Below, in pieces: positions 4,917 through 64,000 of a stretch of 64,000 bases of DNA (positions within the stretch are counted from its first letter, which is position 1; every line of letters starts with the position of its first letter). This stretch comes from a virus. Its lineage: Duplodnaviria > Caudoviricetes. The DNA lies in IMG/VR virus record IMGVR_UViG_2636415863_000002, positions 19,803 to 83,802 of that record; one strand, given 5' to 3'. The translations under genes were made by a program, and so were the position numbers. The notes under the pieces are model-generated. The model was given only the letters and a program-made list of their open reading frames with translations, was not told the origin of the DNA and made no database searches.

Positions 4917-6239
4917 TCAGGCGTGCTCGATGACCACGCCGCGCTTGTACAGCGCCGCGTCGCCGCTGCCCGCGTCGGTCGGAACGCCGTAGTCGCCCAC
5001 CCACGACCAGGTCGACGACAGGACCTGCTGCAGGCGGTCCTGCGGCGGACGCACCAGCAGCGTCATGTCGACACCCGGTGCCACGTTGACCTGTCGCACC
5101 TCCGGCACGTCCTCCACCCCGGTGCCGGACAGCAGCGTGCCGGTGTTGTCGAACGGGGCCGCCATCAGCGCGGACGCGCCCAGGACGATCGGCCGGTGCA
5201 CCGTCAGCGTGCCCGCCGAGCCACCCAGGATGGTCGGGGTCTCGATGTTCCTGACCCAGTCGATGCCGCCGAAACGGCCAATACTCAGGTCGCGGTAGAT
5301 GGGGCTGTCAACGCGGCCCTGCAGCGCCTGCTTGAAGTCGCTGTCGGAGAACAGTTCGGCCTCAGTGTCCGGGTCGATGTGCGCGACGTAGTAGCCGCCG
5401 AGGGTCGGCACGTTCATCTTCCTGAGCCTCGCGACTGCGCTGCGGAAGTTCTGGAAGGTGACCGTGTTGCTGCTGGCCAGGTCGTAGGCGGTGTTCGTGC
5501 CGGTAGCGCGGATCGTGGTCGGCGCGTTGCTCGAGATCACCGCATCACCGACGACGTCCACCCGCGCGGAACCCAGCGTGAGCGTGTTCGTGGACGTGTT
5601 GACGCCGACGACCGTGTTCGCGACACCAGCGATCGTCACGTTCAGCGGGTTCGCTCCGGACACCGGGGTCGGCACACCGTTGACGTTGACCGTCGAGAAC
5701 CCGTTCACGGACTGCACGATGATCGCCGTGTCCGAGGTGCCCGCAGTGGTGCACCACGTGCGGCCGCCCGCGTAGGACGCGTACAGCTTGTTCCGGGCGA
5801 CCTGGTTGATGGTCTGCCCCGCGTTGATGCCGAGGGTCTCCACGTCGGCAAGGAACTTGGAGGCCAGCGCCATCGCGTTGGACAGCATGTTCGTGTCCAT
5901 GCTGTTGGCGTACTGGTCCATCACGACCGACCACTGCTCGATGCTGTAGGTCGACGCGGACGGGTCCGAGCCGGTCACCGGCGTCGTCGCCGGCGCCAGC
6001 AGACCCTTACGGGTGAAAGTCTTCGTGTCCCCGAGCCCGCCCTGCCACGGCTCGGAGTCCGCAATCGCAGGGAACAGAAAGTTCGGCACGAGCGCGTCAC
6101 GGAAGACACGGTCCAGGATGCCGTTCTGCAGCATCGCCTGAATCGCGGCCGGAACGGTCGCACGGACACCGGCGTGCCGGTCAAGACGGAACCACGAACG
6201 GGTGGTGCCCGCCTTCGGGATGGTGGGGGTCATGCTCAC
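4917..6239 (-). CDS. Major capsid protein
   Basis: 440 aa after the scaffold; YYVAHIDPD...L and IGRFGGIDWV motifs of HK97-fold capsids. Confidence 0.85.
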   Translation of the reverse strand: MSMTPTIPKAGTTRSWFRLDRHAGVRATVPAAIQAMLQNGILDRVFRDALVPNFLFPAIADSEPWQGGLGDTKTFTRKGLLAPATTPVTGSDPSASTYSIEQWSVVMDQYANSMDTNMLSNAMALASKFLADVETLGINAGQTINQVARNKLYASYAGGRTWCTTAGTSDTAIIVQSVNGFSTVNVNGVPTPVSGANPLNVTIAGVANTVVGVNTSTNTLTLGSARVDVVGDAVISSNAPTTIRATGTNTAYDLASSNTVTFQNFRSAVARLRKMNVPTLGGYYVAHIDPDTEAELFSDSDFKQALQGRVDSPIYRDLSIGRFGGIDWVRNIETPTILGGSAGTLTVHRPIVLGASALMAAPFDNTGTLLSGTGVEDVPEVRQVNVAPGVDMTLLVRPPQDRLQQVLSSTWSWVGDYGVPTDAGSGDAALYKRGVVIEHA

Positions 6240-6424
6240 TCCTCAGTGATTTCTACGGACACCAGGTCCGGGTGCTGCTCGGCAATCGCCTGGACCCCGA
6301 GCAATGCGGTTTGAATGACGGCCGACACGGCGGCGCAGACGCGACCCCCAGCGACGTGCTCTTCGTGACCGGCCACCTCAATCGAGATGCGCCCCTCGCC
6401 CAGGTGGGCGCGGACTTCGATCAC
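6236..6424 (-). CDS. prp: Ribosomal-processing cysteine protease Prp-like (minimal)
   Basis: GH...VCAAVSA catalytic His/Cys signature; start and stop overlap scaffold and capsid genes. Confidence 0.75.
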   Translation of the reverse strand: MIEVRAHLGEGRISIEVAGHEEHVAGGRVCAAVSAVIQTALLGVQAIAEQHPDLVSVEITEE

Positions 6425-7230
6425 GCCGAGCGCTGCCGGTAACCGAACTGGGAGAGGTAATCGGCGACCTCGTCCTTGGATGCCTTCGAGTAGTCGGTGG
6501 GCGCCGGCGCGCCTCGCGAGCCCTGCCCGGGGTCAGGCCGGGGCTTCGGCTTGCGGGCGGGCTCCGGCTCCGCCGCCGCAGCGCTCACCACCGGTTCGGG
6601 CTTCGCCCAATGCGGCTTGCGCTCCAGCAGGTCCGCAAGGTCCGCTTCGATCGCATCGGTATCGATCTCGCCGTCGGAGTCGACGTACTTGCTGGGGTCG
6701 CGCATCAGCACGTCCACGGCATCCGACGGATCCGCGAACTGGCCGACCGCAAAGACCTTCACTTCGGACGACACGGCACGCGCAACGGCCTTCGCCGCCT
6801 GGGTCTTCGCACGCTCGCCCTGAGCCTGCGCCTTCTCCAGCTCGGACTTGTCGCGGTCCTCGAACTCTTGCACCTTGCGTGCGAGAGCAGCCATCTCCCT
6901 CTTCGCGGCCGCGGCTTCCTTCTTCGCCGCAACCCGCTCAGCTTTCATCCGCTCGAGAGCCTTCTTGCCCGCATCGCCCAAGCCGTCCTTCGCCGGCTCA
7001 TCACCGGGCTCCGGATCGCCCTCGTCGCCCTCGGGGTCGTCGTCACCATCGCCGTTCAGGGCGTCGGCGAGCATCCGCTCAGCTTCGGGGTCTCCCCCGT
7101 CGCCGGTCCCGGCGCCGGCGCCAGCCGCCGGTGCCTCCGGGTCGCCGCCCTCAGGCTCAGGGTCGTCGTGTCGTGCCAGGTTGAACCAGGTGGCGCCGGT
7201 TGCCGGTGCCGGGTGCTTCTCGGTGGACAT
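6421..7230 (-). CDS. Capsid scaffolding protein
   Basis: Acidic N-terminus, LGDAGKKALERMKAER coiled coil, EDRDKSELEK, KPHWAK...DPGQG. Confidence 0.85.
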   Translation of the reverse strand: MSTEKHPAPATGATWFNLARHDDPEPEGGDPEAPAAGAGAGTGDGGDPEAERMLADALNGDGDDDPEGDEGDPEPGDEPAKDGLGDAGKKALERMKAERVAAKKEAAAAKREMAALARKVQEFEDRDKSELEKAQAQGERAKTQAAKAVARAVSSEVKVFAVGQFADPSDAVDVLMRDPSKYVDSDGEIDTDAIEADLADLLERKPHWAKPEPVVSAAAAEPEPARKPKPRPDPGQGSRGAPAPTDYSKASKDEVADYLSQFGYRQRSA

Positions 7231-7301
7231 TGCGTCCGCCCTCTCGTGTGATGCGAAAGGGGCGCCGTTGCAGCACCCCTCGGGGGTTGGGTGGTGCGTG
7301 G

Positions 7302-7550
7302 TCAGCTCTTGAGACTGCCGTCGGCTGACCAGGTATCGGGGACAGCGTCCGAGGCGCCGAGCGCCTTGGCCCGCTGGATGATGAAGCGCCGCACCTTGCT
7401 GCGGGCCTCTTCCGTCGGCGGCTGCACACGGCCGACAGCACGGATGGCGTTCTCGAGATCCGCACGATTGCGGATGGGGAATCTCCCTCCAGGCATCGCC
7501 TGGCCCTTCGCGGCCGCCTTCTTCCGGGCGGCCGTGTTCATGTCGGCCAC
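7302..7550 (-). CDS. Small head-module protein (DUF6582-like)
   Basis: AMPGGRFPIRNRADLENAIRAVGR...IIQRAKALG motif. Confidence 0.6.
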   Translation of the reverse strand: MADMNTAARKKAAAKGQAMPGGRFPIRNRADLENAIRAVGRVQPPTEEARSKVRRFIIQRAKALGASDAVPDTWSADGSLKS

Positions 7551-7559
7551 GATGTCCTC

Positions 7560-8585
7560 CTACAAGAGGTAGCCAAAGCGCCGCAGGAGCCGGATCAGTT
7601 CGTCCCGGTCCTCGGCGAGCTTGAGAATCTCGGACGGCATCAGCCGCGGAGTACGAAGGCGGAAGCGCGGCAGGCCCTGCTCAACGTCCGCTCGGGTGCG
7701 GGCGAACCGCTGCCCCGTCCTCTGCTCGGTCTCACGCCGCATCTCCTGGAAGAACTCGCCGCGGCGTGTAGTGCTCTCCAGCGTGGCGACGACTTTCCGC
7801 CCATAGACGTCCAGCGTCTGCACGCTCCGGCTGGCATTCACGACGCGGAAGATGTCAGCGCCTTCCCGAATCGCGGTCGCGCCACCCACGCCAAACCGTC
7901 GGTCCTGCTCCGCGCGGGACAGGCTGTTGAAGAACGCCTTCGGGTCCGTAAACCGACCCGGCCGCGCCTTCGTCGACGGACTGCCATAACACTGACAGCG
8001 GCGATGCCTAGCGAAGTCCGCATTCCAGCGGTACCACTTCCCGGCGAGGATCACGCAGCGGGCGCACGCGCCGGGCCGGACCATCCGGATGTAGCCGGTC
8101 ACCGTGCGGTTGGCGACCATCGCCACTCCCATCGCTCCCGACCCTGCGTCCGCGACCTCGCTCGCAACGATCCGCTGCAGGCTGGCCATGCCGCCGAGCA
8201 TCGCCTCCTGCAACGTCAACCCGCCCTGGATCAGGGTCTTGGCGCGGATGACTGGCAGGTACAGCAGCGAGTCCAGCGCCCGACCGTCCGCCGCGGTCCC
8301 GGCCAACTGCCGGTACTGCACGGTCGACGCGCCGTCCGCGTAGTCCGAGGAGAGCCCGTCCGCGGCCACCATCGCGTCCACGTACCGCTGCCCGGTCGAC
8401 GCCGCGAGCAACTGGCCCGCGGCCAGCGCGCTCACCATCGCATCACCGATGCCCCGCAGCCACGATCCGGACAGGTCCGTGGTGTCCAACTGCCGCCACA
8501 GTTGCGCCATACGCATCGTCGCCTGAAGCTGCGCGCGGCGTTGCGTCTCACCGTAGGAGGCGACGATCGTGCTGGTGTCGGCCAT
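7560..8585 (-). CDS. MuF-like minor capsid/head morphogenesis protein
   Basis: After portal; GAC.RC.ILAGK...F.RH..C.C motif; ATG at 8585 next to the portal stop. Confidence 0.7.
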   Translation of the reverse strand: MADTSTIVASYGETQRRAQLQATMRMAQLWRQLDTTDLSGSWLRGIGDAMVSALAAGQLLAASTGQRYVDAMVAADGLSSDYADGASTVQYRQLAGTAADGRALDSLLYLPVIRAKTLIQGGLTLQEAMLGGMASLQRIVASEVADAGSGAMGVAMVANRTVTGYIRMVRPGACARCVILAGKWYRWNADFARHRRCQCYGSPSTKARPGRFTDPKAFFNSLSRAEQDRRFGVGGATAIREGADIFRVVNASRSVQTLDVYGRKVVATLESTTRRGEFFQEMRRETEQRTGQRFARTRADVEQGLPRFRLRTPRLMPSEILKLAEDRDELIRLLRRFGYLL

Positions 8586-8586
8586 C

Positions 8587-10026
8587 TCAGCCGTCCGCGG
8601 AAGCCGCCGAGAACTGCGGCACCGGTTCGCCACCACCTGGGCCGCCGTCCGATGGCGCGGGGGCGCCCGGGGCGGTCGGCGGCGCCGTCGACAGCGCGTG
8701 CAGGTCCGCGGCCGTCATCCGGGTCAGAGCCTCATCCTGCATCGCCCGCATCCGGATCCGCTGCTCAGCCGAGTAGCCCAGGTCCTCCCAAGCCTGCTCG
8801 GTCGGCAGGATGCCGGACGCGTGCAGCTTGGTGACCGCGTCCGCCTTCTGCGCATAGGTCGGGGTCGCAGCGTCCCGCCACGCCGTCTCCAGACTGCGGG
8901 CCTTCGGATCCAGGCTGCCGTCCCGGACCAGCAAGGCGAGACGCATCACCCGCTCCCACGCCTCCCCGAACGCCCGCTGGCGCCGCTCGGACCGCTTCAC
9001 CAGGCGAGCCTCCGACGCACGGATCGCGTCCGCGGACGGCGGCTGATCCGTGGCCAGGCCGAGGAAGGCCGGCGGAAGGCCCGTCAACGCGGCCACGAGC
9101 CGGGCAAGCTGGTTGATCGTCTCGTGGAAGTTGGTCAGCTGAGCCTCGGGGAACTGGCCGAACTTGACGCCGTCGCCCTCGTTCACCCACAAGCGGCCCG
9201 CCAACGACGACATCGCGCCGAGCGGCTGCCCCATCTCATCGGCGAAGTCGTCCCTGCTCATGCCGGTCGCCCACCGGCGCGGCATCGCGTGATACTCCGC
9301 ACTCACCATCATGTCCGTGGCGATCTTGCAGGCGGCATCCGACAGAGGGATCACCGCACGCAGCTCCGACGTGCCGTCCATGTGCCGCAACCGGGGCCGG
9401 TTCGCCAGCGTCACCACCAGCAACTGACCGAGACCATGCTCATCCCGGTCGACCTCGACCCACGCGCCCTTCTGCTTCTCGAACTGGTGGCGTGAGTCCG
9501 GCAGGTACAGCATCGCGTTCTGCACCGGCATCGACCCGGACGCGGCCGGCTCATCCCACCGCTTGATCGCGGCGATCTCCTGCCGCGTCCGCGGATCCCG
9601 CTCCGCATACGCCTCGAGCGCCGACTCCGCAGTGACGATCGGGATCTCCTCATCGGCGTCGTTCGCGCCGACGATCGCATACGACCGCCGCAGCGCCAGC
9701 GCATCCACGTGCGCCTGCTGCGACCCCTCGTCGAGGTTGTTCGCCTGCCAGATCTCCCACAGGTCATCCGCGGTCGTCTCGCTCTTGGCGTACCGAAAGC
9801 CCTCGATGTCCAGCCGCTCATCCAGCGCATCCACCACCAGCTGCGGCCAGTTGATGACGACCTGCCGCATCCGGTCGGACAGCTCGACCTGAATCTCCGG
9901 CGCCATGTACGACAGCGGCTGAATGCCCTCGTAGTAGGCGTCCATCAACTTCAGCTCGGGCAGCTCCTTGTCGTGCGCCTGCACGAGCCGCTTCAGCCAC
10001 TCCTCCGGGGACAGGTCCAAAGCCAC
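8587..10026 (-). CDS. Portal protein (SPP1 gp6-like)
   Basis: YYEG.QPL, NWPQLVVDALDERL, SADAIRASEARL motifs. Confidence 0.9.
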   Translation of the reverse strand: MALDLSPEEWLKRLVQAHDKELPELKLMDAYYEGIQPLSYMAPEIQVELSDRMRQVVINWPQLVVDALDERLDIEGFRYAKSETTADDLWEIWQANNLDEGSQQAHVDALALRRSYAIVGANDADEEIPIVTAESALEAYAERDPRTRQEIAAIKRWDEPAASGSMPVQNAMLYLPDSRHQFEKQKGAWVEVDRDEHGLGQLLVVTLANRPRLRHMDGTSELRAVIPLSDAACKIATDMMVSAEYHAMPRRWATGMSRDDFADEMGQPLGAMSSLAGRLWVNEGDGVKFGQFPEAQLTNFHETINQLARLVAALTGLPPAFLGLATDQPPSADAIRASEARLVKRSERRQRAFGEAWERVMRLALLVRDGSLDPKARSLETAWRDAATPTYAQKADAVTKLHASGILPTEQAWEDLGYSAEQRIRMRAMQDEALTRMTAADLHALSTAPPTAPGAPAPSDGGPGGGEPVPQFSAASADG

Positions 10027-10044
10027 AGCCCCACCCCCTTCAGG

Positions 10045-11679
10045 TCAACGCATGACGGTTGTCCGGCTCGACTTCTTCGGGCGGGCCATGCCTGCGGCAA
10101 TCGCGTCACCAGCGGCTTCATGGGCAAGTACGGACACCACCGTCAGGTCGATCTTCTGGTGGGGTGCTGCCTTGCGCAGCACGTACCGGCCAGCGGTTCG
10201 GGCCGCCTTCCGGGCATGCCCCACGTGAGCCGACGTGTCCTCACAGCCGTCATGCTCGAAGGCACTGCCAGCCTTCGTCACATCAGTCAGCAGCCGTTCA
10301 CAGGCGGCATACATCTGCACGACGCGCTGCGTGTACCAGCGGACCACCCGCTTCTCCCCGTACCGCTCCGCCCACGTGTCGACCTCGGTCTCCCAGTACG
10401 GCGGATCGCAGTACGCGCGCACCACGTGGTAGCGGTGCATCACCTCGTCCATAGCGGCGTCGACCTCGAGGCGCGGTGTTTGGCCGCCCCACTCGGCCGG
10501 GTCCCAGATCGTCGGCAGCTTCAGTGAGCTGTACACCGGCGTGAACTGGTAACCATCCAGCGTCTCGAGCCGGATGCCCGTCCAGTCGTCGATGTCGCTG
10601 CCGTCGAACCCGAGCGTCACGGGCGTCCCGTCCGGGACCTCCCGCGGAGCTGCTCGAAGATCCCAGCGGTCCCGGGCAAGCCATGTACCCGTACCCGCCG
10701 TGATCCGGTTGCCGAAGAACCGCTCGGCCTGCGCCTGGTCCCGTTCGATCAGCTCAGCAGCTTCGGCCTCGATGGCGTCGAGGTCGACCCACCAGGAGTC
10801 GCCATATACCGCCTTGTGAATCTTCCGGCGGTCCGCCTTCTTGGCGTAGTCCAGGTCAGCCGGAGCCCGCCGGAAGTCCCGGAAGATGTCCTGCACCTTC
10901 GCCTCGAACGTCCGCTGCGCCACGCTGTTCTCGCTGGGGTCCCAGCCGTTCGTCGTCTCCGTCGACCGGCCGCCCATGCCCGCCAGGCCACGCCGCTGCG
11001 TGTCCGCGACCCTCTGCATCTTGTTCTCGGTCGTCCAGATGCCGGATTCGTCCTGCGGCACGAAAGTGACGCGCTGACCGAGGCGGGACTGAGCCGACGA
11101 GGTCACCGTGTCGATGCGGCCCCCGCCCGGCAGGCGAATGAACTCCTCGCCCGTCTTCGGGATCAACTCGGCAAGCGGACCCTTGTCGATCATCGGACGG
11201 AGGGCACCATAGATGTTGTCGGTCTGCTCCTCCGAGAACGCCGTGATCTGGATCAGCGGCGTCGGCCACGGCATGCCCATCGGCTCGCCCGGCTCGTACT
11301 CGTACAGCCAGCCGCAGCCACAGCCGTGATCCCGGCAGTCGTACAGCTCGCCACCGGACGCCCACCCGGCGAACACCGCCGGGCCGACACCCTCGACACA
11401 GACCTGCGACGCGGTCAGCGGACCCTTGCCCCACTTCTGCGGACGCACCAACTGGCTGCGCCGGTAGTGGAACGCCGAAGCAGGCGACAGCATCGACCGC
11501 TCCCGCGTCGCACCGGGCTTCACCCGGTAGTGGTTCAGGTAGAACCACAGCATCTCGTCGGTGAGGACATACGGCTCGCCAACGGAGAAGCCGTCCGGGA
11601 TCACGCAGTGCGCCTCAACCCAGTCCGCGATCAGGAAGCCGAGCGTGGGCCACTGGACTACCCGATCATCCCCCGTCAC
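10045..11679 (-). CDS. terL: Terminase large subunit
   Basis: RPQKWGKGP Walker A variant, QDESG Walker B, LGFDGS nuclease motif, KID. Confidence 0.9.
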   Translation of the reverse strand: MTGDDRVVQWPTLGFLIADWVEAHCVIPDGFSVGEPYVLTDEMLWFYLNHYRVKPGATRERSMLSPASAFHYRRSQLVRPQKWGKGPLTASQVCVEGVGPAVFAGWASGGELYDCRDHGCGCGWLYEYEPGEPMGMPWPTPLIQITAFSEEQTDNIYGALRPMIDKGPLAELIPKTGEEFIRLPGGGRIDTVTSSAQSRLGQRVTFVPQDESGIWTTENKMQRVADTQRRGLAGMGGRSTETTNGWDPSENSVAQRTFEAKVQDIFRDFRRAPADLDYAKKADRRKIHKAVYGDSWWVDLDAIEAEAAELIERDQAQAERFFGNRITAGTGTWLARDRWDLRAAPREVPDGTPVTLGFDGSDIDDWTGIRLETLDGYQFTPVYSSLKLPTIWDPAEWGGQTPRLEVDAAMDEVMHRYHVVRAYCDPPYWETEVDTWAERYGEKRVVRWYTQRVVQMYAACERLLTDVTKAGSAFEHDGCEDTSAHVGHARKAARTAGRYVLRKAAPHQKIDLTVVSVLAHEAAGDAIAAGMARPKKSSRTTVMR

Positions 11680-12133
11680 CGGGAACGACCTTGAACCGAT
11701 CCCGGGCCGTGCGCCGCTTCACCGGCTGCTTCCCGGAACCCTCGCGCCGCTCCGCGACCTCGTCGGCCGCAATCCGCCACCGGTTCGCCCGCATCCCCGG
11801 CGTCGTCAACCCCAGCGAGTCGGCCATCTGCCGAACCAGGGTCGACAGATTCACCCGCGACTCCATCGCCTCAGCCTCAGCGAAGCGGCGCACGTACAGC
11901 GCCACCTCGTACTCCTGGCCGTACCGCTCCCACATGATCGCTTGCGGCTTTCGCCACAGCGACGCCCACAACTCGTGCTCGCGGATCGTCTGCTCCGTCA
12001 ACGGCCACTCGGGCATTGCGCCCTGGCGGCCCTCCGCGGGCAGGATCGTCCACTCGCCAGCGTCCCGGTCACGCCGCAGCGCGCTCGGGTCGGGGGCCGG
12101 GCCGGAGCGCGCTCGTGCTCCACCACTCGCCAT
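11666..12133 (-). CDS. terS: Terminase small subunit
   Basis: GGARARSGPAPDP start, W..LW..PQA..W, LGLTTPGMRANRW; overlaps terL. Confidence 0.8.
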   Translation of the reverse strand: MASGGARARSGPAPDPSALRRDRDAGEWTILPAEGRQGAMPEWPLTEQTIREHELWASLWRKPQAIMWERYGQEYEVALYVRRFAEAEAMESRVNLSTLVRQMADSLGLTTPGMRANRWRIAADEVAERREGSGKQPVKRRTARDRFKVVPGDGG

Positions 12134-25675: not shown

Positions 25676-25894
25676 TTAGGCGGCGGTTCGGTAGTCGTCG
25701 TGGGCGGCGGCGGAGGCGGGCTTGCGGATGCGCTGCTCCTCGACCGCGCCGTCCCCTGCGATGCCGGCCAGGACAAGGACGGCGATCACGATGCGGATTC
25801 CGGGCGGTACGGACAGGCCCATGAACCAGGCCAGCCCCGCGATCAGTAAGGCGACCCGGGCTCGGGTCAGGCCGATCAAAAGTCCGTGACGCAT
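25676..25894 (-). CDS. Small two-TM Spd-like protein (contains a TTA codon)
   Basis: Hydrophobic; AAAGGA RBS; in-frame TTA at 25847-25849. Confidence 0.55.
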   Translation of the reverse strand: MRHGLLIGLTRARVALLIAGLAWFMGLSVPPGIRIVIAVLVLAGIAGDGAVEEQRIRKPASAAAHDDYRTAA

Positions 25895-29403: not shown

Positions 29404-30606
29404 ATGACCTTCGGATCGGAGCTCCGCCACTACCGGCAAGACGCCGGAATGTCTCTCGCTGAACTCGCTTGCCGCGTCCACATGACTAGGGCCCACATCC
29501 ATAACGTCGAGACCGGGCGCCGCGCCCCGAGCAGCGATCTCGCCGCAGCGGCCGACGTAGCCCTCGCAGCATGTGGCCGGCTGGTCGCCGAGTTCGACCG
29601 GGAGGACCGGGAACGGCAACGGCAAGCCGCCACCCGAAAGACTCTCGCTGCTTCCCTCGCCACCTCGCGAGATCTGATGGCGCTGGCCGACCTGGAGCTC
29701 GATGAATTGCAGGCGGGAGTGGAGGAGACCGCGGTCGACTACCTCGGAACCGCGCCGGGCCCGATGCTGCTGCGCGCTGACTCGCTTCGCCGTGATGCCC
29801 TGGCGCGCCTGCGGGACTACAGGCACGGGCCGCACGAGCGAGCCGATCTGTACGTCTCCGCAGGACGACTCTCCGGCATCCTCGCCTACGCCGCCCTCGA
29901 CCTCGGCGACTCGGCAGCGGCGTTAGAGCACGCGCGGGCGGCCGGACGTTGCGCCCAGTACGCCGGCGACACTGAGCTGCTGATGTGGGTGCGCGGCACC
30001 CAGTCGCTGATCTCCCGCTTCGCCGGCGACTACGGCATCGCCCTCGACTACGTGCGAGACGGGCTCCAGTACGCCGGTGACGTGCCCGGCACCGGCGAGG
30101 CGCGCCTGCTGTGCGGCGAGGTCCAGTGCCTGGCGAACCTCGGCGACTCCCGGGCGGCGAACCGGACGCTGCGCCTTGCCGAGCAGGCGCGGGAACGCGT
30201 GCAGCGACCCGACAGCCTGACCGGTCTCTTCGAGTTTTCCGAGACGAAGCAGCGCTACTACGCCGCCAGCTCCCTGATCTGGCTGAACGGCGGCGACGAC
30301 GCGCGAACCGCGGCAACCGAAGCCGAGGCGGCAATCGCATCGTGGCAGCAGATGCCGCCCGAGCAGCGGTCCCTGGACGACGAGCGACTGTGCCATATCT
30401 ACCTGGCCACCGCCCAGGTGCAGCTCGGCGAGGTGGAAGCGGCCGCGGAGTCCATGGCCCCGGTGCTGGCGCTGCCGGTCGAGGATCAGATCAGTTGGAT
30501 CAACAAGCGGGCGCACCGGGTCGGCTCGATCCTCGCCGCGCCCCGCTACCACCAGTCTTCTGCTGCCGTCGATCTCCGGGAAGCCATCGCGGCCCTCGGT
30601 GCCTGA
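29404..30606 (+). CDS. XRE-family HTH regulator with TPR-like C-terminus (contains a TTA codon)
   Basis: FGSELRHYRQDAGMSLAELA...HNVETGRRAP; TTA at 29923-29925. Confidence 0.8.
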   Translation: MTFGSELRHYRQDAGMSLAELACRVHMTRAHIHNVETGRRAPSSDLAAAADVALAACGRLVAEFDREDRERQRQAATRKTLAASLATSRDLMALADLELDELQAGVEETAVDYLGTAPGPMLLRADSLRRDALARLRDYRHGPHERADLYVSAGRLSGILAYAALDLGDSAAALEHARAAGRCAQYAGDTELLMWVRGTQSLISRFAGDYGIALDYVRDGLQYAGDVPGTGEARLLCGEVQCLANLGDSRAANRTLRLAEQARERVQRPDSLTGLFEFSETKQRYYAASSLIWLNGGDDARTAATEAEAAIASWQQMPPEQRSLDDERLCHIYLATAQVQLGEVEAAAESMAPVLALPVEDQISWINKRAHRVGSILAAPRYHQSSAAVDLREAIAALGA

Positions 30607-46753: not shown

Positions 46754-47082
46754 GTCTGGCTCCTGGGGTCAGTGCGGCGGCAGGCGGGGCATGGACAGGG
46801 CGGGTCGACGGTGCGGAGGTTCGCGCCGGCCTCGAGCCATTCGCGGTACTCGGCGAGAGCACGGGAGCACTCGGCCGCATCGGGCTGGGCTGGCGGGCGA
46901 CTGGGTGGCCGGGTGCCAGGTGGCCACGCCCCGGGGCGCCGGCCGGGCGACGGGGCTGCGGGCGGCTGGGTGGCCCCGACCTCTCGACGGTTCTTGCCGG
47001 TGGCGATCTGCTGGCGCATGAACTCCTTGAAGTCACCCTGCTTGCGCATCGCCCGGATGTCGTCAGGGTCGAAGTCGGTCAT
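46750..47082 (-). CDS. Hypothetical phage protein
   Basis: Coupled operon; C-terminal CPCPAC. Confidence 0.5.
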   Translation of the reverse strand: MTDFDPDDIRAMRKQGDFKEFMRQQIATGKNRREVGATQPPAAPSPGRRPGAWPPGTRPPSRPPAQPDAAECSRALAEYREWLEAGANLRTVDPPCPCPACRRTDPRSQT

Positions 47083-47834
47083 GACGCCTCGCCCTCGGGC
47101 TCGACAATCTCGGCGTCGGGGATGTGCTCCTCGGCCTGCATGCGAGCCAAAGCAAGCCGGGACGCCTCGCGGCGGCGCTCTTCCTCGCGGGCCCGCTGCG
47201 CCGGATCCGTCGCCGGCCGCCCGGATGCCGCGGCGAGACGGGCCGAGTGCGGAGTAGCCCTCGGCTTGCCCATCGGCTGCTTACGGCTACCGCCCGGCGT
47301 CTTGCACGGCCGGCCGATCGCCGCCTGGCACTGCGGACACTCGACGCCCAACGGGCCAGCCCGGCGCACCGCGTCGGCGAGCGCCTCCTCGTCCGAGTCG
47401 GGAACGTCGCGGCCGACCGTGTAGCCGCGGGCCTCCAGCCCCCTCGCGAACTCCGGGTGCGGGCCACCCTCAAGCGCCAGCCGGCCAGCAGCCGGAGCAA
47501 CGCGGCCGGAGGCTATGGCCTGCACCTGGCCGCGGTACCGGGCCAGGTACTCGGCAGTCGACTCATCGCCGATCGGCTCGTACTGGAAGTTCTCTAACCG
47601 CTGCGACCGGATCTTGGAGCGAAGCGTGCGGACGTGGTGCGGCAGGATCCACAGCTTGCCGTCAGGATCCTTCGGGGCGGTCGTGTAGTAGCTGGCGACG
47701 GCCGCCTTGGCGTCGGCATCCAGCGGCACGTCGTGGAGCGCGGCGGCCCAAGCCACCGCTGCTCCCTGGCTCGGCTTGCGGTTGTCGAACGCTGCGCAGT
47801 GGCCCAGCAGTTCGGCAGCTTCTCGTGGATTCAT
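47079..47834 (-). CDS. Replication accessory (helicase loader/inhibitor-like) protein with Zn finger (contains a TTA codon)
   Basis: M...EAA.LL...AAFDNR.....AW..AL; directly after rep; TTA at 47595-47597. Confidence 0.6.
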   Translation of the reverse strand: MNPREAAELLGHCAAFDNRKPSQGAAVAWAAALHDVPLDADAKAAVASYYTTAPKDPDGKLWILPHHVRTLRSKIRSQRLENFQYEPIGDESTAEYLARYRGQVQAIASGRVAPAAGRLALEGGPHPEFARGLEARGYTVGRDVPDSDEEALADAVRRAGPLGVECPQCQAAIGRPCKTPGGSRKQPMGKPRATPHSARLAAASGRPATDPAQRAREEERRREASRLALARMQAEEHIPDAEIVEPEGEAS

Positions 47835-48997: not shown

Positions 48998-49001
48998 CAG
49001 T

Positions 49002-50294: not shown

Positions 50295-50449
50295 TGGTGG
50301 GTTCCTTCGGACGGTGCGGTTGATGGCGGGCGCGTGGAACCAGGCCCTCAGGGCGGTCGCTTGTCGCGGCCCTGGCGCATCGGAGGCTCGTGTACATAAT
50401 AGCGCTCACCGCGCTCATGTACATCACGTCTGTGAGGTACACTGCCGAC

Positions 50450-50668
50450 ATGACCGCGCTGAAGAAGGAGCACCAGGAGAAGATCGCGGACGTGCGCAAC
50501 GCGCTCGCCGATGCGATCGAACGAGCCCGCTACTACGACGAGACGACTGTGATGACGTCCCGCGGAAAGCGTGTGGCCGTCCTGGTCGGCATGGACTTCT
50601 ACGAGCGCGCCTTGGAAGCCCTCGGCGAGGAACGCGTCCTCGTCCCCAAGTTGCCTGCCTCCGACTGA
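50450..50668 (+). CDS. Phd/YefM-family antitoxin-like regulator (orphan)
   Basis: I.DVR..L.D.I.RA......MT.RGKRVAVLV. Confidence 0.7.
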   Translation: MTALKKEHQEKIADVRNALADAIERARYYDETTVMTSRGKRVAVLVGMDFYERALEALGEERVLVPKLPASD

Positions 50669-50729
50669 CCTCATCCCTCTCCCCTCCCTTCCTCGCCCCG
50701 TGGTTTCCGTGGGGCGTTGTTGTGTGCGG

Positions 50730-51158
50730 CTACAGGTAGGTGCCGGTGAGTGGCGCGTCGTGGGTGGTGCGGGGCGCTGGGGCAGTGGGCTGGGGCGCAG
50801 GCACGGATGGGGCTGCGGGTGGAGGGCCTGGGGGAGGTCCGTAGTGGTCGCCGAACACATCGATCCCGTCTGGGCCGGCCAGTAGGGCCGCGGCCGCTAT
50901 GCCCTCGACCAGGTCCTGCGTCGTCCGTGTCACGACGTCACGCTGTCTGCCCTTGCGCGGCGTCCTGTCGGAGAACAGCAGGGCGTCACCGCGTGCGCCC
51001 AGGGAGGCGCCACCACGGCGGGACGTGCCGATCAGCCACGCCTCGCTCACTTCACCGCGTGCGGCCCGGTACTCGAGGTCGCGGATCATCAGCGGCACCG
51101 CGAGCTGGAGGAATTCCCGTAGCTGCTCGATCGGATTGTCTGGCTCGGGCTGGCGCAT
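50730..51158 (-). CDS. Hypothetical phage protein
   Basis: L.LAVPL.I...GD.LLF...L..GIA..A...G...FG.H; coupled start. Confidence 0.5.
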   Translation of the reverse strand: MRQPEPDNPIEQLREFLQLAVPLMIRDLEYRAARGEVSEAWLIGTSRRGGASLGARGDALLFSDRTPRKGRQRDVVTRTTQDLVEGIAAAALLAGPDGIDVFGDHYGPPPGPPPAAPSVPAPQPTAPAPRTTHDAPLTGTYL

Positions 51159-52219
51159 CAGGCCACCGCCAGTTCCTGCTTGTGCTGCCGTCGCGCCGCA
51201 CCACGGGCACGCTCGCAGGCCCGGCAGCGGCGGGACTTCCGGCCGTCCTTGCCTCGCCGGGTGTAGCGGGTGTTCTCCGGCGTGTACTCGTGGTCTTGCG
51301 GGCAGTGGGTGGACACGCCGGCCCGGGATGCGACGCGTCGGTCTGTGCCCTTGGTGGGTGGGGCGGTCTCGGGCGAGAACCATAGGTCGCGGAAAGTGCC
51401 ACGGCCGAGTCGGATGCGGGCGGTGAGCGTGCCGTACTTCAGGCCGAGACTCTCGGCGGCCCGCTGGTAGTCTTCTTGGGCCGCAAGGGCCACTACGGCT
51501 TCTCGCTGGTGCTCCGGGAGGGTGGCAAGCACCTGGTGGACGGCGATGCGTTCGGTTAGCTGCTCGTCGGCCGGGGGAAGGGATACCGGTCGCCAGTAGA
51601 TGGCGAACCGGGGGGCGGTGGCCACTGCGTACCTCTGCCTGTTCCCGTAACATTTGTCTTCGTCAATGAGTTGAGGCTGCCAGTAGGCAGCGAAGCGGCG
51701 ATCACAGTCATCCCGCTCAACGTAGTCACGGGGAATTCCGTAGAGATGCCGCTGCTCACGGATCTCCGTGTAGATCGCCTGCCATCCCACGCGGGTCAGC
51801 TCGTTCCAGCCGGGCGGGGTTTCGGCGGTGCAGAGGTGCTCGGCGATCGCTGACCATGCCGTGTCGTAGCGGGTGATCATGTCGGATGACAGGGACCGGT
51901 CGGCGGCGCATGCGGTGCGGGCCAGGGCGTGCAGGTCCCGGAGTGTGTAGCCGTGTGCGACGTGGTCGGGTGCGCTGGTGTCCGGGGTGGGGGTGGGCTC
52001 GTGCTCGATGGGCTTGAGGGCGAACTGCCCGACGTGTGCGTGGTGCTGGACGATGCTTCCCGTGAGCGCCGCGAAGTCGAGCTGGATGTCGACCTGTCCG
52101 CCGAGGAGTCCGCGGGCGTGCCGGTGGATAGTGGCGGCAAGGTCGGTGGGACTGTCACCAGTGACAGTGCGGCGGGTGGATGGGTGGCCGGTTGGGGTGA
52201 TGGTGAGCTGGTAGTCCAT
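51158..52219 (-). CDS. Sigma-70 region-4-like protein with C-terminal Zn motif
   Basis: L..LPEHQREAV.......Y..AAE.LG...GT...RI..GR; THCP..HEY..EN...RRCRAC. Confidence 0.6.
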   Translation of the reverse strand: MDYQLTITPTGHPSTRRTVTGDSPTDLAATIHRHARGLLGGQVDIQLDFAALTGSIVQHHAHVGQFALKPIEHEPTPTPDTSAPDHVAHGYTLRDLHALARTACAADRSLSSDMITRYDTAWSAIAEHLCTAETPPGWNELTRVGWQAIYTEIREQRHLYGIPRDYVERDDCDRRFAAYWQPQLIDEDKCYGNRQRYAVATAPRFAIYWRPVSLPPADEQLTERIAVHQVLATLPEHQREAVVALAAQEDYQRAAESLGLKYGTLTARIRLGRGTFRDLWFSPETAPPTKGTDRRVASRAGVSTHCPQDHEYTPENTRYTRRGKDGRKSRRCRACERARGAARRQHKQELAVA

Positions 52220-52243
52220 AGAGGTCTCCGGTTGTTCTGGGGG

Positions 52244-52318
52244 TGCCCGAGACGGGAGTCGAACCCGCAGCTGAGCGGTGTTTAAGACCGCGGCGTCTTC
52301 CAGTTGCGCCACTCGGGC
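52244..52318 (-). tRNA. tRNA-Leu(UAA), bldA-like, short variable loop
   Basis: GCCCGAG/CTCGGGC acceptor, GCG/CGC D stem with GG, GCGGT-CTTAAAC-ACCGC anticodon arm, GCGGG-TTCGACT-CCCGT T arm, discriminator A; CCA not encoded. Confidence 0.85.
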
Positions 52319-52357
52319 CTGGTGCCCCGCGGCTCTGGCTGCGGGGCGTTGTTGCGT

Positions 52358-52621
52358 CTAGGCGGCGTTCGGCCGGTGGCGGGTCTTGTCGATGGCGGCT
52401 CGTTCGCGGGGTGTTTTGCCTCCGCGGATTGCGCTCCTCATCTGGGGTGGCAGACCCAGCTCTTTGGTGAGGGCGTCCTCTAGGCAGGTCGTCTCGACGG
52501 GGCATCTGGCGCAGGTGGCTTTGGGCTCCCGAACCGTGGCCGAGTTGCAGACGTCGGGGGCGAAGAGGTCCGGGTCGATCTGGGCGCAGAGGGCCTGGTC
52601 GCGCCAGTCGCGGCGGCTCAT
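52358..52621 (-). CDS. WhiB-family transcription factor
   Basis: W...ALC...DPDLF...K..C..CPV...CL..AL...I.GG.T..ER. Confidence 0.85.
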   Translation of the reverse strand: MSRRDWRDQALCAQIDPDLFAPDVCNSATVREPKATCARCPVETTCLEDALTKELGLPPQMRSAIRGGKTPRERAAIDKTRHRPNAA

Positions 52622-53460
52622 GCGGCGACCTCCAGGTTGCTGACGCTGGCCATGGCCGGCTTGGTGAAGCGGTCCTTGCGCATGTCGCGGAGGAGGTCGT
52701 GCACGTAGTCGCGGGACATGCCGAGCCGGTTGGCGATCTCGTGCTCGGGGATGTTGAAGGAGGCGAGGTGCTCGATCTCGGCGCGGCGAAGGGCTGCTAG
52801 TTCCCGCCGGTTGTCGAGGTCTACGACGTTCTGGTCTGTCTCGGGTGTCGCGGCGGGGTCGTCGATGTTGTCGTCCCAGGCGGCCACGGACTTCCAGCCG
52901 AGCCGGGCTGCTCGCGCTTTGGCTTTGCCGTCGGTGCCGGGGATTGCACTGAGGCGCTTGTAGGCGGCAGCCATGCCTTCAGCGACGGCTACGCGAACAG
53001 TTGGCGGTTGCTTGTCGAGGAGTCGCCCGAGGTGGTTGACGGCCATGGGGACGCTGGCTGCGATCTTGTAGTAGGAGTGACCGATTGTGTGCAGGGCTTG
53101 AGCTCGACGGATCGTTCCGGTGCTGTCAGTCACGGCGTGGAAGGGGGTTCCGGTGGGCCCGGCCGAGGCGAGGATGCGGGCGGCCACCTTGGGCGCGACG
53201 GTGGGCTGCCCGGCGAGGATCTTGCTGATGTCGCCGCTGCTTCCGCCGACGACGGTGATGATCTGGGTGTGGCTGTAGCCCTGGTTGCTCCACTGCTCGA
53301 GGCGCTGGCGCACGGGTGTGGCGTCCACACGGATGGGGCGGTGGATGGTGGCTACTCGGTATTGCTTGCAGTAGCGCTTGTTGGCGTCGATGCATTCGGG
53401 GCGGCGGCATCCGCGGAGGTAGCAGGCGCGTTCTCCGTGCTGAGGCGGGGTGCGGGTCAC
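52618..53460 (-). CDS. Multi-HTH phage DNA-binding protein
   Basis: HG...Y..GCR...C, several HTH-like segments, AWDDNIDDP. Confidence 0.6.
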   Translation of the reverse strand: MTRTPPQHGERACYLRGCRRPECIDANKRYCKQYRVATIHRPIRVDATPVRQRLEQWSNQGYSHTQIITVVGGSSGDISKILAGQPTVAPKVAARILASAGPTGTPFHAVTDSTGTIRRAQALHTIGHSYYKIAASVPMAVNHLGRLLDKQPPTVRVAVAEGMAAAYKRLSAIPGTDGKAKARAARLGWKSVAAWDDNIDDPAATPETDQNVVDLDNRRELAALRRAEIEHLASFNIPEHEIANRLGMSRDYVHDLLRDMRKDRFTKPAMASVSNLEVAA

Positions 53461-53657
53461 GGTCGGGGCTCCTTCCGGGTGTTGCGGCGGCGTCGGGCGG
53501 GGTGGCGCCAGATGCGTTCGAGGGCGGCAAGTTCGGGGGCGAGTCGGTTGCGGCGGCGGTTGGCGAGGTGGGTGAAGGCGGCGGCGATGAGGAGCGGGGC
53601 GACGATGAGGAGGGCCGCGGCGGCGAGGGCGGCAATGTGCGCCAGGTCGGCGCTCAC
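53457..53657 (-). CDS. Small membrane protein
   Basis: One TM helix then a basic tail. Confidence 0.5.
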   Translation of the reverse strand: MSADLAHIAALAAAALLIVAPLLIAAAFTHLANRRRNRLAPELAALERIWRHPARRRRNTRKEPRP

Positions 53658-54025
53658 GCGGCGGCCTCCTTGGGCCGGGCGGCGCGGGTCTCAGCTATGA
53701 CCAGGCCCTTCACCGACAACCGCCAGACAGAGATGCGATGGCCGTGGGTGGGGCCGCTGGTGGACGGCACCATCTGCCCGGTGTGCTCGATCACGCCAGC
53801 GGTGCGCAGCGAGTTGATGGCGGCACCGAGGTAGCCGTGCGACAGCTCGGGCAGCACATCGCGGAGCTGATTGCAGTCGAATGTGTCGTTCGCCAGGCCG
53901 AAGTGCCAGACAGCCTGCTCGACGATGAAGCGGTCCCAGTCGCCGGTGCGGGCGACGATGTCGTCGAGCCGGATGTCCTTGTCGGCGGCGGCCAGGCGCT
54001 CGGCCGGGGTGAGAGAGCGAGGCAT
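53654..54025 (-). CDS. wHTH-like hypothetical protein
   Basis: Coupled operon; G.IE.TG..V.ST...H...I.VW. Confidence 0.5.
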   Translation of the reverse strand: MPRSLTPAERLAAADKDIRLDDIVARTGDWDRFIVEQAVWHFGLANDTFDCNQLRDVLPELSHGYLGAAINSLRTAGVIEHTGQMVPSTSGPTHGHRISVWRLSVKGLVIAETRAARPKEAAA

Positions 54026-54099
54026 TGAGGTTCTCCGATCGAGGGGGATCCTGGAGGGGTGGGCTGGCCCGCATTGCCCGCGGGCCGGCCCGGGGTGCC

Positions 54100-54375
54100 C
54101 TACTGGGCGGTGCCGTGCTGCTCGAGTTCGGCGTCCGTCATCAGGTCGTGCGGGATCTGACCGATGCGGAGAACCTCGCGGAGGTCGGCGGCGGTCTTGC
54201 GGTAGGTGGTGGCACGTTCGAACTGCTGCAGCTGCGTCGGGGTGGGCTCATCGATGAACAGGTCGTCGCCCCCGAAGTCGGGCGCCGACTTGGCCATCTG
54301 CTCCCACCGGTCAGCGAGGCTGGTGAGGGTGGTGCGCAGGTCGGCTTCGGCCTTGTGCATGGTCTTGGCGGTCAT
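54100..54375 (-). CDS. Hypothetical phage protein
   Basis: Flanked by two related hairpins. Confidence 0.5.
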   Translation of the reverse strand: MTAKTMHKAEADLRTTLTSLADRWEQMAKSAPDFGGDDLFIDEPTPTQLQQFERATTYRKTAADLREVLRIGQIPHDLMTDAELEQHGTAQ

Positions 54376-54454
54376 GGTGGTTGCCTTCCAAGGTGTGGTG
54401 TGCTGGGGTTCTGAGCCGGCCGCATTGCCCGCGGCCGGCTCAGGCGCGTGCGGG

Positions 54455-55387: not shown

Positions 55388-55390
55388 CGG

Positions 55391-56233: not shown

Positions 56234-56568
56234 AAGGCACCGCCCAGGGGCACGGGCCGTGCGCAGGGCTCGCACAGGTCGTCGTCGGTAAACGGGCCGT
56301 CTTCGTCACCGCACCGGGTGCAGCGGATTGGCTGCTGTTCGGTGAGGTCTTCGTCGCACTTGGCGCAGCGGGAGTGGGCGCCGGTGATCGCGCCCATTTC
56401 GTCGTGCAGGTGGACGAGAAGGACGTCGCCGCCGCAGCCGGCGTGTCCGATGTCCTCGGCGCGGTAGGTGCGCTCCAGGCCACCGCCCCAGTCCTCGGTG
56501 TTGATGAGGGTCCAGTTGATGTCGTCGGGGATGTTCGGCATGGGCGTGGTCTCCTTGGTGGTGTTCAC
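56230..56568 (-). CDS. Zn-ribbon hypothetical protein
   Basis: Several CxxC pairs; coupled operon. Confidence 0.5.
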   Translation of the reverse strand: MNTTKETTPMPNIPDDINWTLINTEDWGGGLERTYRAEDIGHAGCGGDVLLVHLHDEMGAITGAHSRCAKCDEDLTEQQPIRCTRCGDEDGPFTDDDLCEPCARPVPLGGAL

Positions 56569-57659: not shown

Positions 57660-57725
57660 TGTGTGTTCTCCTTGGTTGGTGGCAACCCCGCCCGATTTGG
57701 GCGGGCGGGGTTGCCATGCAAGGGC

Positions 57726-62721: not shown

Positions 62722-64000
62722 GAAGCGCAAGACCGCCCGGTATGGCCAGGGCAAGCGATGGCGGGTCGCCGGCATCCCCGGCGTCCGCGACCGCTCCTTC
62801 GAAAACAAGACCGGCCCCGACGGCGCAGACGCCTGGCTCGCAGACGCCCAGAGCAAGAGCCGCGCAGGGGAGTTCATCGACCCCCGCAGCGGCAACCTGA
62901 CGCTCACCGAGTACATCGAAGACGAGTGGTGGCCGTCAGTTACGGGCGATGTGTCTACGCTTCAAACCGTCAAGGGCCGCGTGTGGAACCACATCATCCC
63001 ACTCATGGGACACCAGACGCTCAACGCGATCAAGGTCGCACAGCTGCGCGCCTTCGTGAAAGAGCTCAACAAGCAGACTGGCCCAGGGACTGCACTCGCG
63101 GCCTGGGGCTATCTGTCGTCCATTCTGCAGATGGCTGTTGAGGACGAGCGGATCCCACGAAATTACGCAACCTATCGATCTGTCAGGGCCGGGTTGCCAA
63201 AGCGCCCGGAGCGCAAGGCGCGGGCCTGGCAACGTGATCGAGTTCGGGCCGTTCAAAAGGCCATGGACTCGCGGTTCCAGGTGATGGTCGATCTGGGCGT
63301 GGGTGTCGGGCTACGGCAAGGGGAAGTCTTCGGGCTGTCCGTTGAGGACATCGATGAGGGGGCCGGCGTTATCCATGTCCGCCGGCAGATCCGCAAGATC
63401 GGCGGCAGGCTCGTATTTGCACCTCCCAAAGGGGGCAAGACGCGCGATGTGCCACTGCCGGGTCAAGTGGCGAGCAGGCTGCGCAGCCACCTCGAGGCAT
63501 TCCCGGCTTCTGGCGTGACCCTGCCCTGGATGAACCCGGAGACGCCGACCTCGGAGAAGGAGCGCAAGGACTGGGCGCCCCAGACGCATGTCTTGGTCGT
63601 TACCGCAGTACGGGGTGGTCCGCTCCGCAGGGACAGCTGGAATCTGCGCCAGTGGAAGCCTGCCCTTGCCGCGGCCGGCGTCATCACGGAACCTGAGATG
63701 CTCCAGCAGGTCTCCAGCGACGGTAAGAGAGAGTGCACCGTGCTGAAGTACGAGGAGAGCAGGGAGCACGGGTTCCACGCCCTGAGGCATACCTTCGCGT
63801 CGGTGCACCTGGACGCTCGGGAGAACCCGGTGGCAGTCTCGAAGTGGCTGGGCCACGCGGACCCGAGTATCACGCTCCGGATTTACGCGCACATGATGCC
63901 CGAGGCGGATGGCCGCGGGCGGGCAGCGATGGACGCCTGGTTCGAGGCCACCCCAGACTTATTCTCCCCAGATTCTCCCCAGGGTGTCGAAGCGGAATGA
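62663..64000 (+). CDS. int: Tyrosine integrase
   Basis: MAGYIEDRW start; GLRQGE, K.GK.R.VP, FHALRH.FAS, LGH.D...TLR.YAH catalytic residues. Confidence 0.95.
   Translation: MAGYIEDRWWTKKPDPKTGKKRKTARYGQGKRWRVAGIPGVRDRSFENKTGPDGADAWLADAQSKSRAGEFIDPRSGNLTLTEYIEDEWWPSVTGDVSTLQTVKGRVWNHIIPLMGHQTLNAIKVAQLRAFVKELNKQTGPGTALAAWGYLSSILQMAVEDERIPRNYATYRSVRAGLPKRPERKARAWQRDRVRAVQKAMDSRFQVMVDLGVGVGLRQGEVFGLSVEDIDEGAGVIHVRRQIRKIGGRLVFAPPKGGKTRDVPLPGQVASRLRSHLEAFPASGVTLPWMNPETPTSEKERKDWAPQTHVLVVTAVRGGPLRRDSWNLRQWKPALAAAGVITEPEMLQQVSSDGKRECTVLKYEESREHGFHALRHTFASVHLDARENPVAVSKWLGHADPSITLRIYAHMMPEADGRGRAAMDAWFEATPDLFSPDSPQGVEAE
63961..63982. repeat. Direct repeat ATTCTCCCCAG x2, candidate integrase arm-type site
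   Basis: Tandem 11-bp repeat at the 3' end of int, where att usually follows. Confidence 0.5.

Follow-up and report, generated by a model that had tools for sequence, protein, structure and literature searches.

A prophage of Streptomyces carries a short-armed, probable leucine tRNA with the anticodon UAA, a member of a recurrent family on phages and mobile elements

The stretch of 64,000 nucleotides analysed here in full (the window; IMG/VR record IMGVR_UViG_2636415863_000002) is part of a phage integrated in a Streptomyces genome, and carries on its minus strand a 75-nt tRNA gene with the anticodon UAA and a variable loop of 6 nt. We conclude that its product is probably a leucine tRNA, the long variable arm not being required by leucyl-tRNA synthetase (LeuRS), that it represents an apparently undescribed, recurrent short-armed UAA variant of leucine tRNA found on phages and mobile elements, and that the phage probably gains in this way its own supply of a tRNA which the host keeps scarce. 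The gene and its fold, the leucine-type marks, the recurrent family under selection, the position in an operon and the rarity of TTA codons in the host are established by the analysis given below. In the textbook view, UUA is decoded in Streptomyces by bldA alone, which underlies a well-known translational switch for development and antibiotic production. The mechanism proposed here is an ordinary one, a phage tRNA for a scarce codon, yet it touches a classic regulatory switch.

ARAGORN, named along with the original prediction as a check of it, calls just one tRNA in the window, a minus-strand tRNA-Leu(taa) at 52242-52318, and this is also its only tRNA on the entire 530-kb contig C26. The Rfam family RF00005 matches 52318-52244 (-) along the full model (1-71) with 47.7 bits (E 4.3e-07; gathering score 29), and is the sole Rfam family reaching its gathering score anywhere in the window. 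The minimum-energy fold is a cloverleaf (-33.7 kcal/mol, z -1.87; 9 of 200 shuffles were as good), and in our arm-by-arm parse every stem of this copy is paired. The complete cloverleaf with the anticodon TAA at 52282-52284, predicted from the letters alone, is thus confirmed by all three approaches; the anticodon position holds when read on the minus strand, and the strand itself, left unstated in the prediction, is minus. The discriminator A, the D stem of three pairs and the variable loop of about 6 nt were likewise borne out: the Rfam alignment shows three standard D-stem pairs and a C13.A22 mismatch, the alignment and the parse agree on a loop of 6 nt, and A73 is at 52244. CCA is not encoded, the DNA after A73 being CCCC; as only 8 of the 72 parsed tRNA genes of the host (82 ARAGORN calls) encode CCA, such a gene is normal for this host. 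The host calls also include over-long 'tRNAs' of 95-98 nt (C61 871015-871109, C7 9008-9105, C29 848566-848661 and C45 115142-115237), one of them with a four-base anticodon, tggg, and a 70-nt 'Leu(gag)' on C63 with a poor acceptor stem, all of which are probably false.

The features that mark leucine tRNAs are present. These are U8-A14, A15 with U48, G18G19 followed by A at position 20a, U54-A58, U55, C56, A73 and an encoded C74; the T loop starts with TTCGA (U54, U55, C56, A58), so that the bases of the elbow pairs G18:U55, G19:C56 and U54:A58 are all in place. What is absent is the long paired variable arm of the type II shape. In Escherichia coli, the leucine elements are A73, the A15-U48 pair, G18G19, A20a and the D/T-loop pairs, the long arm being unneeded (PMC9976931). 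For the LeuRS of S. coelicolor, the key elements are A14-U8, C74 and the elbow pairs, a variable loop suffices if it has 5 nt or more and includes nt 48, and A73 is reported to be dispensable (PMC6614811). The phage tRNA agrees with this rule, as its loop has 6 nt and ends in U, and A73 is followed by CC. Moreover, S. coelicolor has a tRNALeu(CAA) that is short-armed by nature and is charged by its single LeuRS (Fan et al. 2019, PMC6614811), and in the same study bldA tRNA kept 14% of kcat/Km with a short loop of 5 nt, retained leucine acceptance intact after deletion of all arm pairs, and rose to 151% activity upon insertion of G19. The short loop is neither odd nor a reason to doubt charging: it is the hallmark of a recurrent family, and Streptomyces LeuRS charges short-armed tRNALeu (PMC6614811). 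With an acceptor stem and an anticodon loop like those of bldA, a standard leucine D arm with G18G19 and its loop of 6 nt, the phage tRNA amounts to a natural form of the engineered short-loop bldA constructs.

The host itself provides a further argument. Compared over the whole length, the phage tRNA has its best host matches in the short-armed tRNA-Leu(CAA) (52 positions) and in the bldA-like tRNA (58 positions with the arm gapped out), and its D arm is nearest to that of the host Leu(CAG). The CAA gene, 74 nt long (contig C10, 282816-282889 (-), locus L036/L038), is the only CAA leucine tRNA of the host, and no long-armed CAA gene as in other Streptomyces was found in the host assembly. The same 74-nt type is matched in 267 of the 400 other genomes of the genus (266 of 399 without the unpublished G130), and ARAGORN reads CAA in 12 of the 12 short-armed CAA loci checked, the host's own included. 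Since the only CAA leucine tRNA of the host is short-armed, its LeuRS presumably already charges an armless tRNALeu. At 11 loci from other Streptomyces genomes (L018-L032) there is a long-armed CAA tRNA of 85-86 nt, so both CAA forms occur in the genus.

Without the long arm, the tRNA might in principle be charged by another synthetase, and UUA would then be read as some other amino acid. We consider such mischarging very improbable. The acceptor pair is C3-G70 and not the alanine mark G3:U70, which occurs in none of the 22 family members compared below, the full leucine set is present, and most other synthetases read the anticodon, UAA fitting none of them (PMC9976931).

To look at the distribution of this form we defined the group by a leucine-type D arm, a UAA anticodon, a variable loop of 5-7 nt ending in U and a location on a phage or mobile element; the phage tRNA has all of these. 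In the genus sample of 401 genomes, host (G000) included, BLAST with the phage tRNA matched 23 genomes, again counting the host. ARAGORN applied to the 23 BLAST loci reads short-armed UAA tRNAs of 76-77 nt at five loci in four genomes (G202 twice, G100, G262, G245), with 78-85% identity to the phage tRNA, long-armed UAA tRNAs at five loci, including one in G115 with the same body plus a long arm, long-armed CAA tRNAs at 11 loci, and no tRNA at three. An exact pattern (leucine D arm, six free bases, UAA loop; arm length unconstrained) was present in 6 of 401 genomes (G000, G089, G100, G202, G245, G262), the match in G089 also being short-armed, and the reversed control pattern in none of the 401.

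The same pattern occurs in 20 IMG/VR contigs, and in 19 of them it corresponds to a UAA tRNA of 75-79 nt. Eight contigs have 68.5-72.7% G+C, and in each of these the short-armed UAA tRNA is the only tRNA of the fetched stretch; the other 12 have 36-56% G+C, and seven of them carry arrays of 6-21 tRNAs. On one contig (L054, 4621-4697 (-)) ARAGORN reads a 77-nt tRNA-Phe(aaa) despite the same D arm and the CTTAAA loop motif; either the anticodon loop may have been called out of register or the variant may be genuine.

We compared 22 short-armed UAA tRNAs, 16 of them viral, using our arm-by-arm parse. In the 16 viral tRNAs, both the D arm and the anticodon loop were set by the search pattern and hence are uninformative, while the five other genus copies came from BLAST. 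All seven acceptor positions, anticodon-stem pairs 2-5 and all five T-stem positions are paired in 21-22 of the 22 tRNAs, and this pairing is kept through many double (compensatory) changes; pair 27:43 is kept in 11 of 22. A73 is present in 20, and both U48 and the T loop TTCGA in all 22. The compensatory changes imply that the family is under selection for its fold. In the phage arrays (L059, L062, L066, L050, L051), the other leucine isoacceptors are short-armed as well (4 of 4: AAG, CAA and two UAG; 74-78 nt), and the serine and tyrosine tRNAs are long-armed in 13 cases of 13. Short leucine arms versus long serine and tyrosine ones fit an arm that is dispensable for LeuRS, and the occurrence of armless phage-borne leucine tRNAs over hosts of 36-73% G+C agrees with what has long been known of this enzyme, namely that it can do without the arm.

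The spread of the family over phages of 36-73% G+C, and the fact that a short-armed UAA tRNA sometimes lies beside a canonical long-armed one in the same array (L050, L051), could also point to a spare of altered shape, which replaces or escapes the action of a host nuclease or defence system depleting leucine tRNA. In general, phages are known to carry tRNAs that escape defences aimed at tRNAs. Here, such a role seems rather improbable, as no defence directed at tRNA-Leu was identified in this analysis, the anticodon loop, which is the usual nuclease target, is unchanged from that of the host, and the loss of the arm is more simply explained by LeuRS not needing it.

The window corresponds to positions 278481-342480 of contig C26 in a genome of 8.65 Mb (70.6% G+C, 63 contigs). 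A perfect 67-bp direct repeat, with copies starting at window positions -21370 and +64179, bounds about 85.5 kb, the right copy beginning 179 bases beyond the window end. Apart from the head, packaging and integrase genes of the window (Table 1), the same unit contains, to the left of the window, genes for the tape measure, minor tail proteins and endolysin and a second integrase-like gene (-17339..-16302). The prediction that the tRNA is prophage-encoded is thus well founded, given the capsid, portal, terminase, tape measure, endolysin and integrase genes and the att-like repeats. The tRNA gene as the attachment site of the element was considered and rejected, since the left repeat copy is about 73 kb and the right one about 12 kb away from it. 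A 30-kb non-structural stretch separates the terminase from the early genes, and there are two integrase-type genes; the unit may be composite, a prophage with a nested or tandem second element. The element also holds an FtsK-like gene (22177-24333), an NsdA-family regulator and, between the packaging genes and the early region, a 521-aa protein (17315-18880 (+)), the C-terminal domain of which is a Tox-REase-2 nuclease toxin (107 bits). It also has a segment weakly similar to WXG100, and proteins of this kind are used as bacterial polymorphic toxins.

Table 1. Features of the window, with positions counted from its first nucleotide, and tRNA pairs at three related loci.
Feature	Coordinates	Strand	Basis
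tRNA, anticodon UAA, 75 nt	52244..52318	-	ARAGORN; Rfam RF00005; cloverleaf minimum-energy fold; arm-by-arm parse
Anticodon U34-A35-A36 of the phage tRNA	52282..52284	-	complement of 52284-52282
WhiB-family gene, ends 39 nt upstream of the tRNA	52358..52621	-	PF02467 51.1 bits (cutoff 23.6); phrog_472 WhiB, E 9.7e-18
Hairpin in the gap between whiB and the tRNA, 7 bp, G+C, loop of 10 nt	52324..52347	-	read from sequence
280-aa phage protein, phrog_1590, weak C-terminal helix-turn-helix match, upstream of whiB	52618..53460	-	profile matches
353-aa gene, start 24 nt after the tRNA, GGAG before ATG	51158..52219	-	weak ECF-sigma region-4-like segment; HNH-like C-terminus
Phage zinc-finger DNA-binding protein, 4.4 kb downstream of the tRNA, in-frame TTA at 47595-47597	47079..47834	-	PF24623 38.7 bits
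67-aa gene upstream of the FtsK-like gene, in-frame TTA at 25847-25849	25676..25879	-	TTA mapping
NsdA-family regulator, in-frame TTA at 29923-29925 (codon 83)	29677..30606	+	NF053720 89.2 bits (cutoff 75)
Integrase TTA, codon 465 of 477 of the open frame	63959..63961	+	TTA mapping
Low-scoring 98-aa gene call in the element, with in-frame TTA			
Major head protein, protease, portal, large terminase	4917..12133	-	PHROG, E 6.7e-24 to 6.7e-154
Tyrosine integrase, right end of the element	62567..64002 (stop just past window end 64000)	+	PF00589 51.8 bits
tRNA pair, L082 (G089)	268-351, 1492-1567		
tRNA pair, L073 (G100)	9519-9603, 9923-9999		
tRNA pair, L074 (G262)	9998-10074, 14041-14127		

The order of genes on the minus strand is DUF5131, exonuclease, Gp3-like, 280-aa protein, WhiB, tRNA, 353-aa protein and two HNH endonucleases; the tRNA and its two neighbours belong to the early operon of the integrated phage unit. 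A consensus promoter scan of 51000-54500 yielded no promoter-like sites, Streptomyces promoters often being off that consensus, and the two terminator-like sites in the same region (shuffles give 1.7) are on the other strand. A promoter and terminator of its own for the tRNA were rejected on these grounds. With gaps of 39 nt to whiB and 24 nt to the next gene, only a position inside whiB would leave space for a separate promoter, and thus the tRNA is most likely made within a long minus-strand early transcript. The hairpin between whiB and the tRNA is a possible processing or attenuation signal; it was not called by the terminator scan, which needs a T run. The Gp3-like protein (54455-55387 (-), PF18897 132.6 bits) resembles a recombination directionality factor of a type known from serine-integrase phages; the flanking integrase is of the tyrosine type.

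The tRNA had been placed between a WhiB-family gene and a sigma-region-4-like gene. The former assignment stands, as PF02467 is above its cutoff; the latter is weakly supported, since the 353-aa protein reaches 24.0 bits with Sigma70_r4_2 (PF08281), below the cutoff of 25.7. All 11 NCBIfam sigma models were far under their cutoffs (best 33.9 bits vs 185), no sigma region 2 was found in the protein by profile searches, and PHROG HNH families match it at residues 299-349.

The whiB / tRNA / sigma-like cluster does recur. In L067 the order is the same (280-aa gene, whiB, tRNA, 353-aa gene), with 57% identity for WhiB and 56% for the 353-aa protein. Other arrangements were observed in L065, where whiB and the 353-aa homologue are about 1.4 kb from the tRNA, and in L014 (G115), where the 353-aa homologue is followed by a long-armed tRNA and then by whiB; in L055 whiB and the tRNA precede an HNH region. 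Among the genus copies, no proteins shared with the window were found in the 20-kb surroundings of the short-armed genes. In three of the six genus genomes (G089, G100, G262) the short-armed tRNA is 0.3-4 kb from a long-armed bldA-like gene: in G089 and G100 it lies 1.1 kb and 0.3 kb downstream of that gene and ahead of a FAD monooxygenase gene, and in G262 a tyrosine integrase gene separates the two. This closeness links the family to elements inserting at bldA. No phage genes are in view around the tRNA pairs of G089 and G100; in G245 the short-armed tRNA follows an amidase gene.

The same observations bear on another explanation, by which the tRNA is a passenger or a relic of no use to this prophage: it would either travel neutrally with a mosaic whiB/sigma-like module or be left over from integration at tRNA genes. 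Eleven loci related to the window via the 280-aa gene (four from IMG/VR, seven from Streptomyces genomes) have a mosaic gene order and no tRNA within 4 kb, and the bldA-like genes near the short-armed copies in three genomes, with an integrase in between in G262, would agree with integration at such genes. We nevertheless hold this explanation to be quite unlikely: all stems of the intact phage copy are paired, its position is mid-operon and 10 kb away from the integrase, and the compensatory changes in the family imply selection on the fold.

The preferred reading is a phage supply of a tRNA that is scarce in the host. The host has its own long-armed tRNA-Leu(UAA) gene, bldA-like, of 83 nt, on contig C5, in accordance with the long arm attributed to bldA in the original prediction; in each of six model genomes, the UAA tRNA gene is one (PMC4932002). 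The 7-nt anticodon loops of the phage and host bldA-like tRNAs are identical. Modification of A37 has been proposed as a late-acting step for bldA-type tRNA (PMC10732093, PMC4932002), and, given the identical loop, the phage tRNA probably needs it too. TTA, the rarest leucine codon of the host, is indeed very rare there, at 0.05 per 1000 codons in 718 long frames with high GC3; with genes taken from a crude home-made codon-score caller, we counted 203 TTA codons in 192 of 7018 called genes, or 0.09 per 1000. Thus, a host in which TTA is not a rare codon, the case that would have spoken against the prediction, is not what we observe.

In the element, from window position -13700 rightwards, the same caller gives 5 in-frame TTA codons among 18958 (100 called genes), or 0.26 per 1000, so that TTA is about 2.9-fold commoner there than in the host. 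Called genes of the element further left than -13700 contain none, nor does the large terminase (10045-11679). The genes concerned are listed in Table 1; NsdA in S. coelicolor is a negative regulator of sporulation and antibiotic production. Compensation for heavy TTA use as the main driver was rejected, because the element has five TTA codons and few were seen near the related tRNAs, where they were counted in stop-to-stop frames only. Few as they are, the TTA codons lie in genes of importance to the element, and the UUA tRNA is the scarcest of the host.

The following sequence of events appears fairly probable. The tRNA would be transcribed within the long minus-strand early transcript, excised by the host RNase P and 3' processing, and provided with CCA by the host CCA-adding enzyme; the host LeuRS, not needing the long arm, would charge it with leucine, and it would read UUA and, by wobble, probably UUG. 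It would thus be a second source of UUA tRNA, the transcription of which follows the early programme of the phage and not the host bldA gene. The benefit to the phage would come through the TTA-containing genes of the element (the zinc-finger protein, the integrase, the NsdA-like regulator and two small genes), as well as through the demand for UUA and UUG decoding during infection or induction.

The region of the tRNA is present as assembled contigs in eight RNA-library runs from two studies; such contigs give no level, ends or strand, and DNA may be present. In two of the four runs mapped (X1, X6) one contig bridges the tRNA, the contigs leave a gap from 52264 to 52753 in X7 and from 52128 to 52828 in X8, and the contig depths vary along the stretch. 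At the integrase end (61400-64000) the summed depths were 178-1505, compared to about 1-41 over 44500-61400, in three RNA-library contig sets from one study, where contig depths cannot rank genes.

The bridging contigs, although weak evidence, would also be compatible with expression in the lysogen and hence with a rewiring of the host, in which the prophage tRNA lifts UUA decoding so that adpA, pathway activators and the NsdA-like TTA gene are mistimed, altering development or antibiotic production. Similarly, the tRNA adjoins a regulator of the developmental WhiB type, the adjacency of whiB and the tRNA being seen at three loci (the window, L055, L067), and one of the TTA codons of the element is in its NsdA-family regulator. 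We find this unlikely, since the tRNA is in an early operon of the lytic type, no promoter match occurs close to it, the host's own bldA-like gene is intact, and the shared anticodon loop suggests the same dependence on modification. The stronger version, a device for lysogenic conversion or takeover, is doubtful to the same degree: here a phage-timed UUA decoder, together with WhiB and the sigma-like protein, would lift the bldA bottleneck, and the TTA-containing regulators of the host, the NsdA-like protein and the integrase would be translated on phage timing. If it is true, elements with short-armed UAA tRNAs, including those at bldA, would add an overlooked variable to Streptomyces development and to the activation of silent clusters via bldA.

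Several observations weigh against the supply of a scarce tRNA as we propose it. The absence of a tRNA from all 11 relatives sharing the 280-aa gene means that this phage lineage does well without one. The demand is small, as the element has only five TTA codons in frame and one of these comes from a low-scoring call; the enrichment relative to the host depends on the crude gene caller, and the L056 homologue of the TTA-bearing zinc-finger gene has no TTA. In vitro, the short-loop bldA chimera was 7-fold less efficient than the wild type (PMC6614811). The A37 modification would probably still gate the phage tRNA, and because of this the uncoupling from development may be only partial. The RNA-library contigs, possibly derived from DNA, carry no conclusion on transcription of the tRNA from either cover or gaps. 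Finally, the near-identical contigs L050 and L051 each carry both a long-armed and a short-armed UAA tRNA, which is hard to explain if the two forms are fully redundant.

A natural and mobile second decoder of UUA would mean that some strains may not obey the bldA-only rule, 6 of the 401 genus genomes carrying the type. As a natural counterpart of the engineered short-loop bldA tRNA, the phage tRNA also offers a ready test of whether transcription or modification is limiting.

The closest known system is bldA itself. The two share the anticodon, the identical 7-nt anticodon loop, A14, A15, U48 and A73, with the 58 matched positions noted above for the host bldA-like gene, and the 5' strand of the acceptor stem has one position changed relative to the host copy. 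On the other hand, bldA has a long paired arm in place of the 6-nt loop and a single G in the D loop where the phage tRNA has G18G19 (PMC6614811), and the phage gene is on a prophage (C26) and not in the chromosomal bldA slot, the long-armed copy of the host being on C5. On sequence and position, the phage tRNA is a functional analogue of bldA, not an orthologue. The type I tRNA-Leu(CAA) of S. coelicolor is a leucine tRNA that has a short arm too and is a substrate of the single LeuRS of Streptomyces (PMC6614811), but it differs by its CAA anticodon, a 5-nt loop, G15 and a D arm one base shorter, with 52 of 74 positions matching; the UAA anticodon, A15 and the 6-nt loop exclude the phage tRNA from this type. 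The engineered ScotRNALeu(UAA)-SVL and the arm-deletion mutants combine a body of the bldA type with a short variable loop, which is also the architecture of the phage tRNA; however, they are laboratory-made, whereas the phage tRNA is natural and has, in addition, G19 (PMC6614811).

Among phages, Streptomyces phage Wakanda (NC_070785) has a tRNA array including a 74-nt short-armed tRNA, which is Leu(CAA) and not UAA. In 50,697 deposited phage records we found no close homologue, the one match at E<=0.01 being from a faecal phage; a family member used as the query gave 602 records at E<=1, and the rows inspected were other isotypes, CAA tRNAs or partial T-arm matches. Searches of the literature outside subscription journals and supplements brought up no description of a tRNA-Leu(UAA) from a Streptomyces phage or prophage, and a term look-up in PMC13500790 and PMC13072593 gave no mention of phage. 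Phage tRNAs in general likewise serve codons that are poorly served by the host; the present case is distinct in that it is a single tRNA, on a temperate element, and specific to UUA. According to PMC10732093, Streptomyces phage genomes are usually without UUA altogether, and phage CW39 has nine TTA-bearing genes (PMC13350457). Another link between phages and bldA is given by the TTA codons in the terminases of phiHau3 and StrepC.1 (Smith et al. 2013, via PMC10732093): there the phage depends on or senses the tRNA of the host, whereas here the phage brings the tRNA itself.

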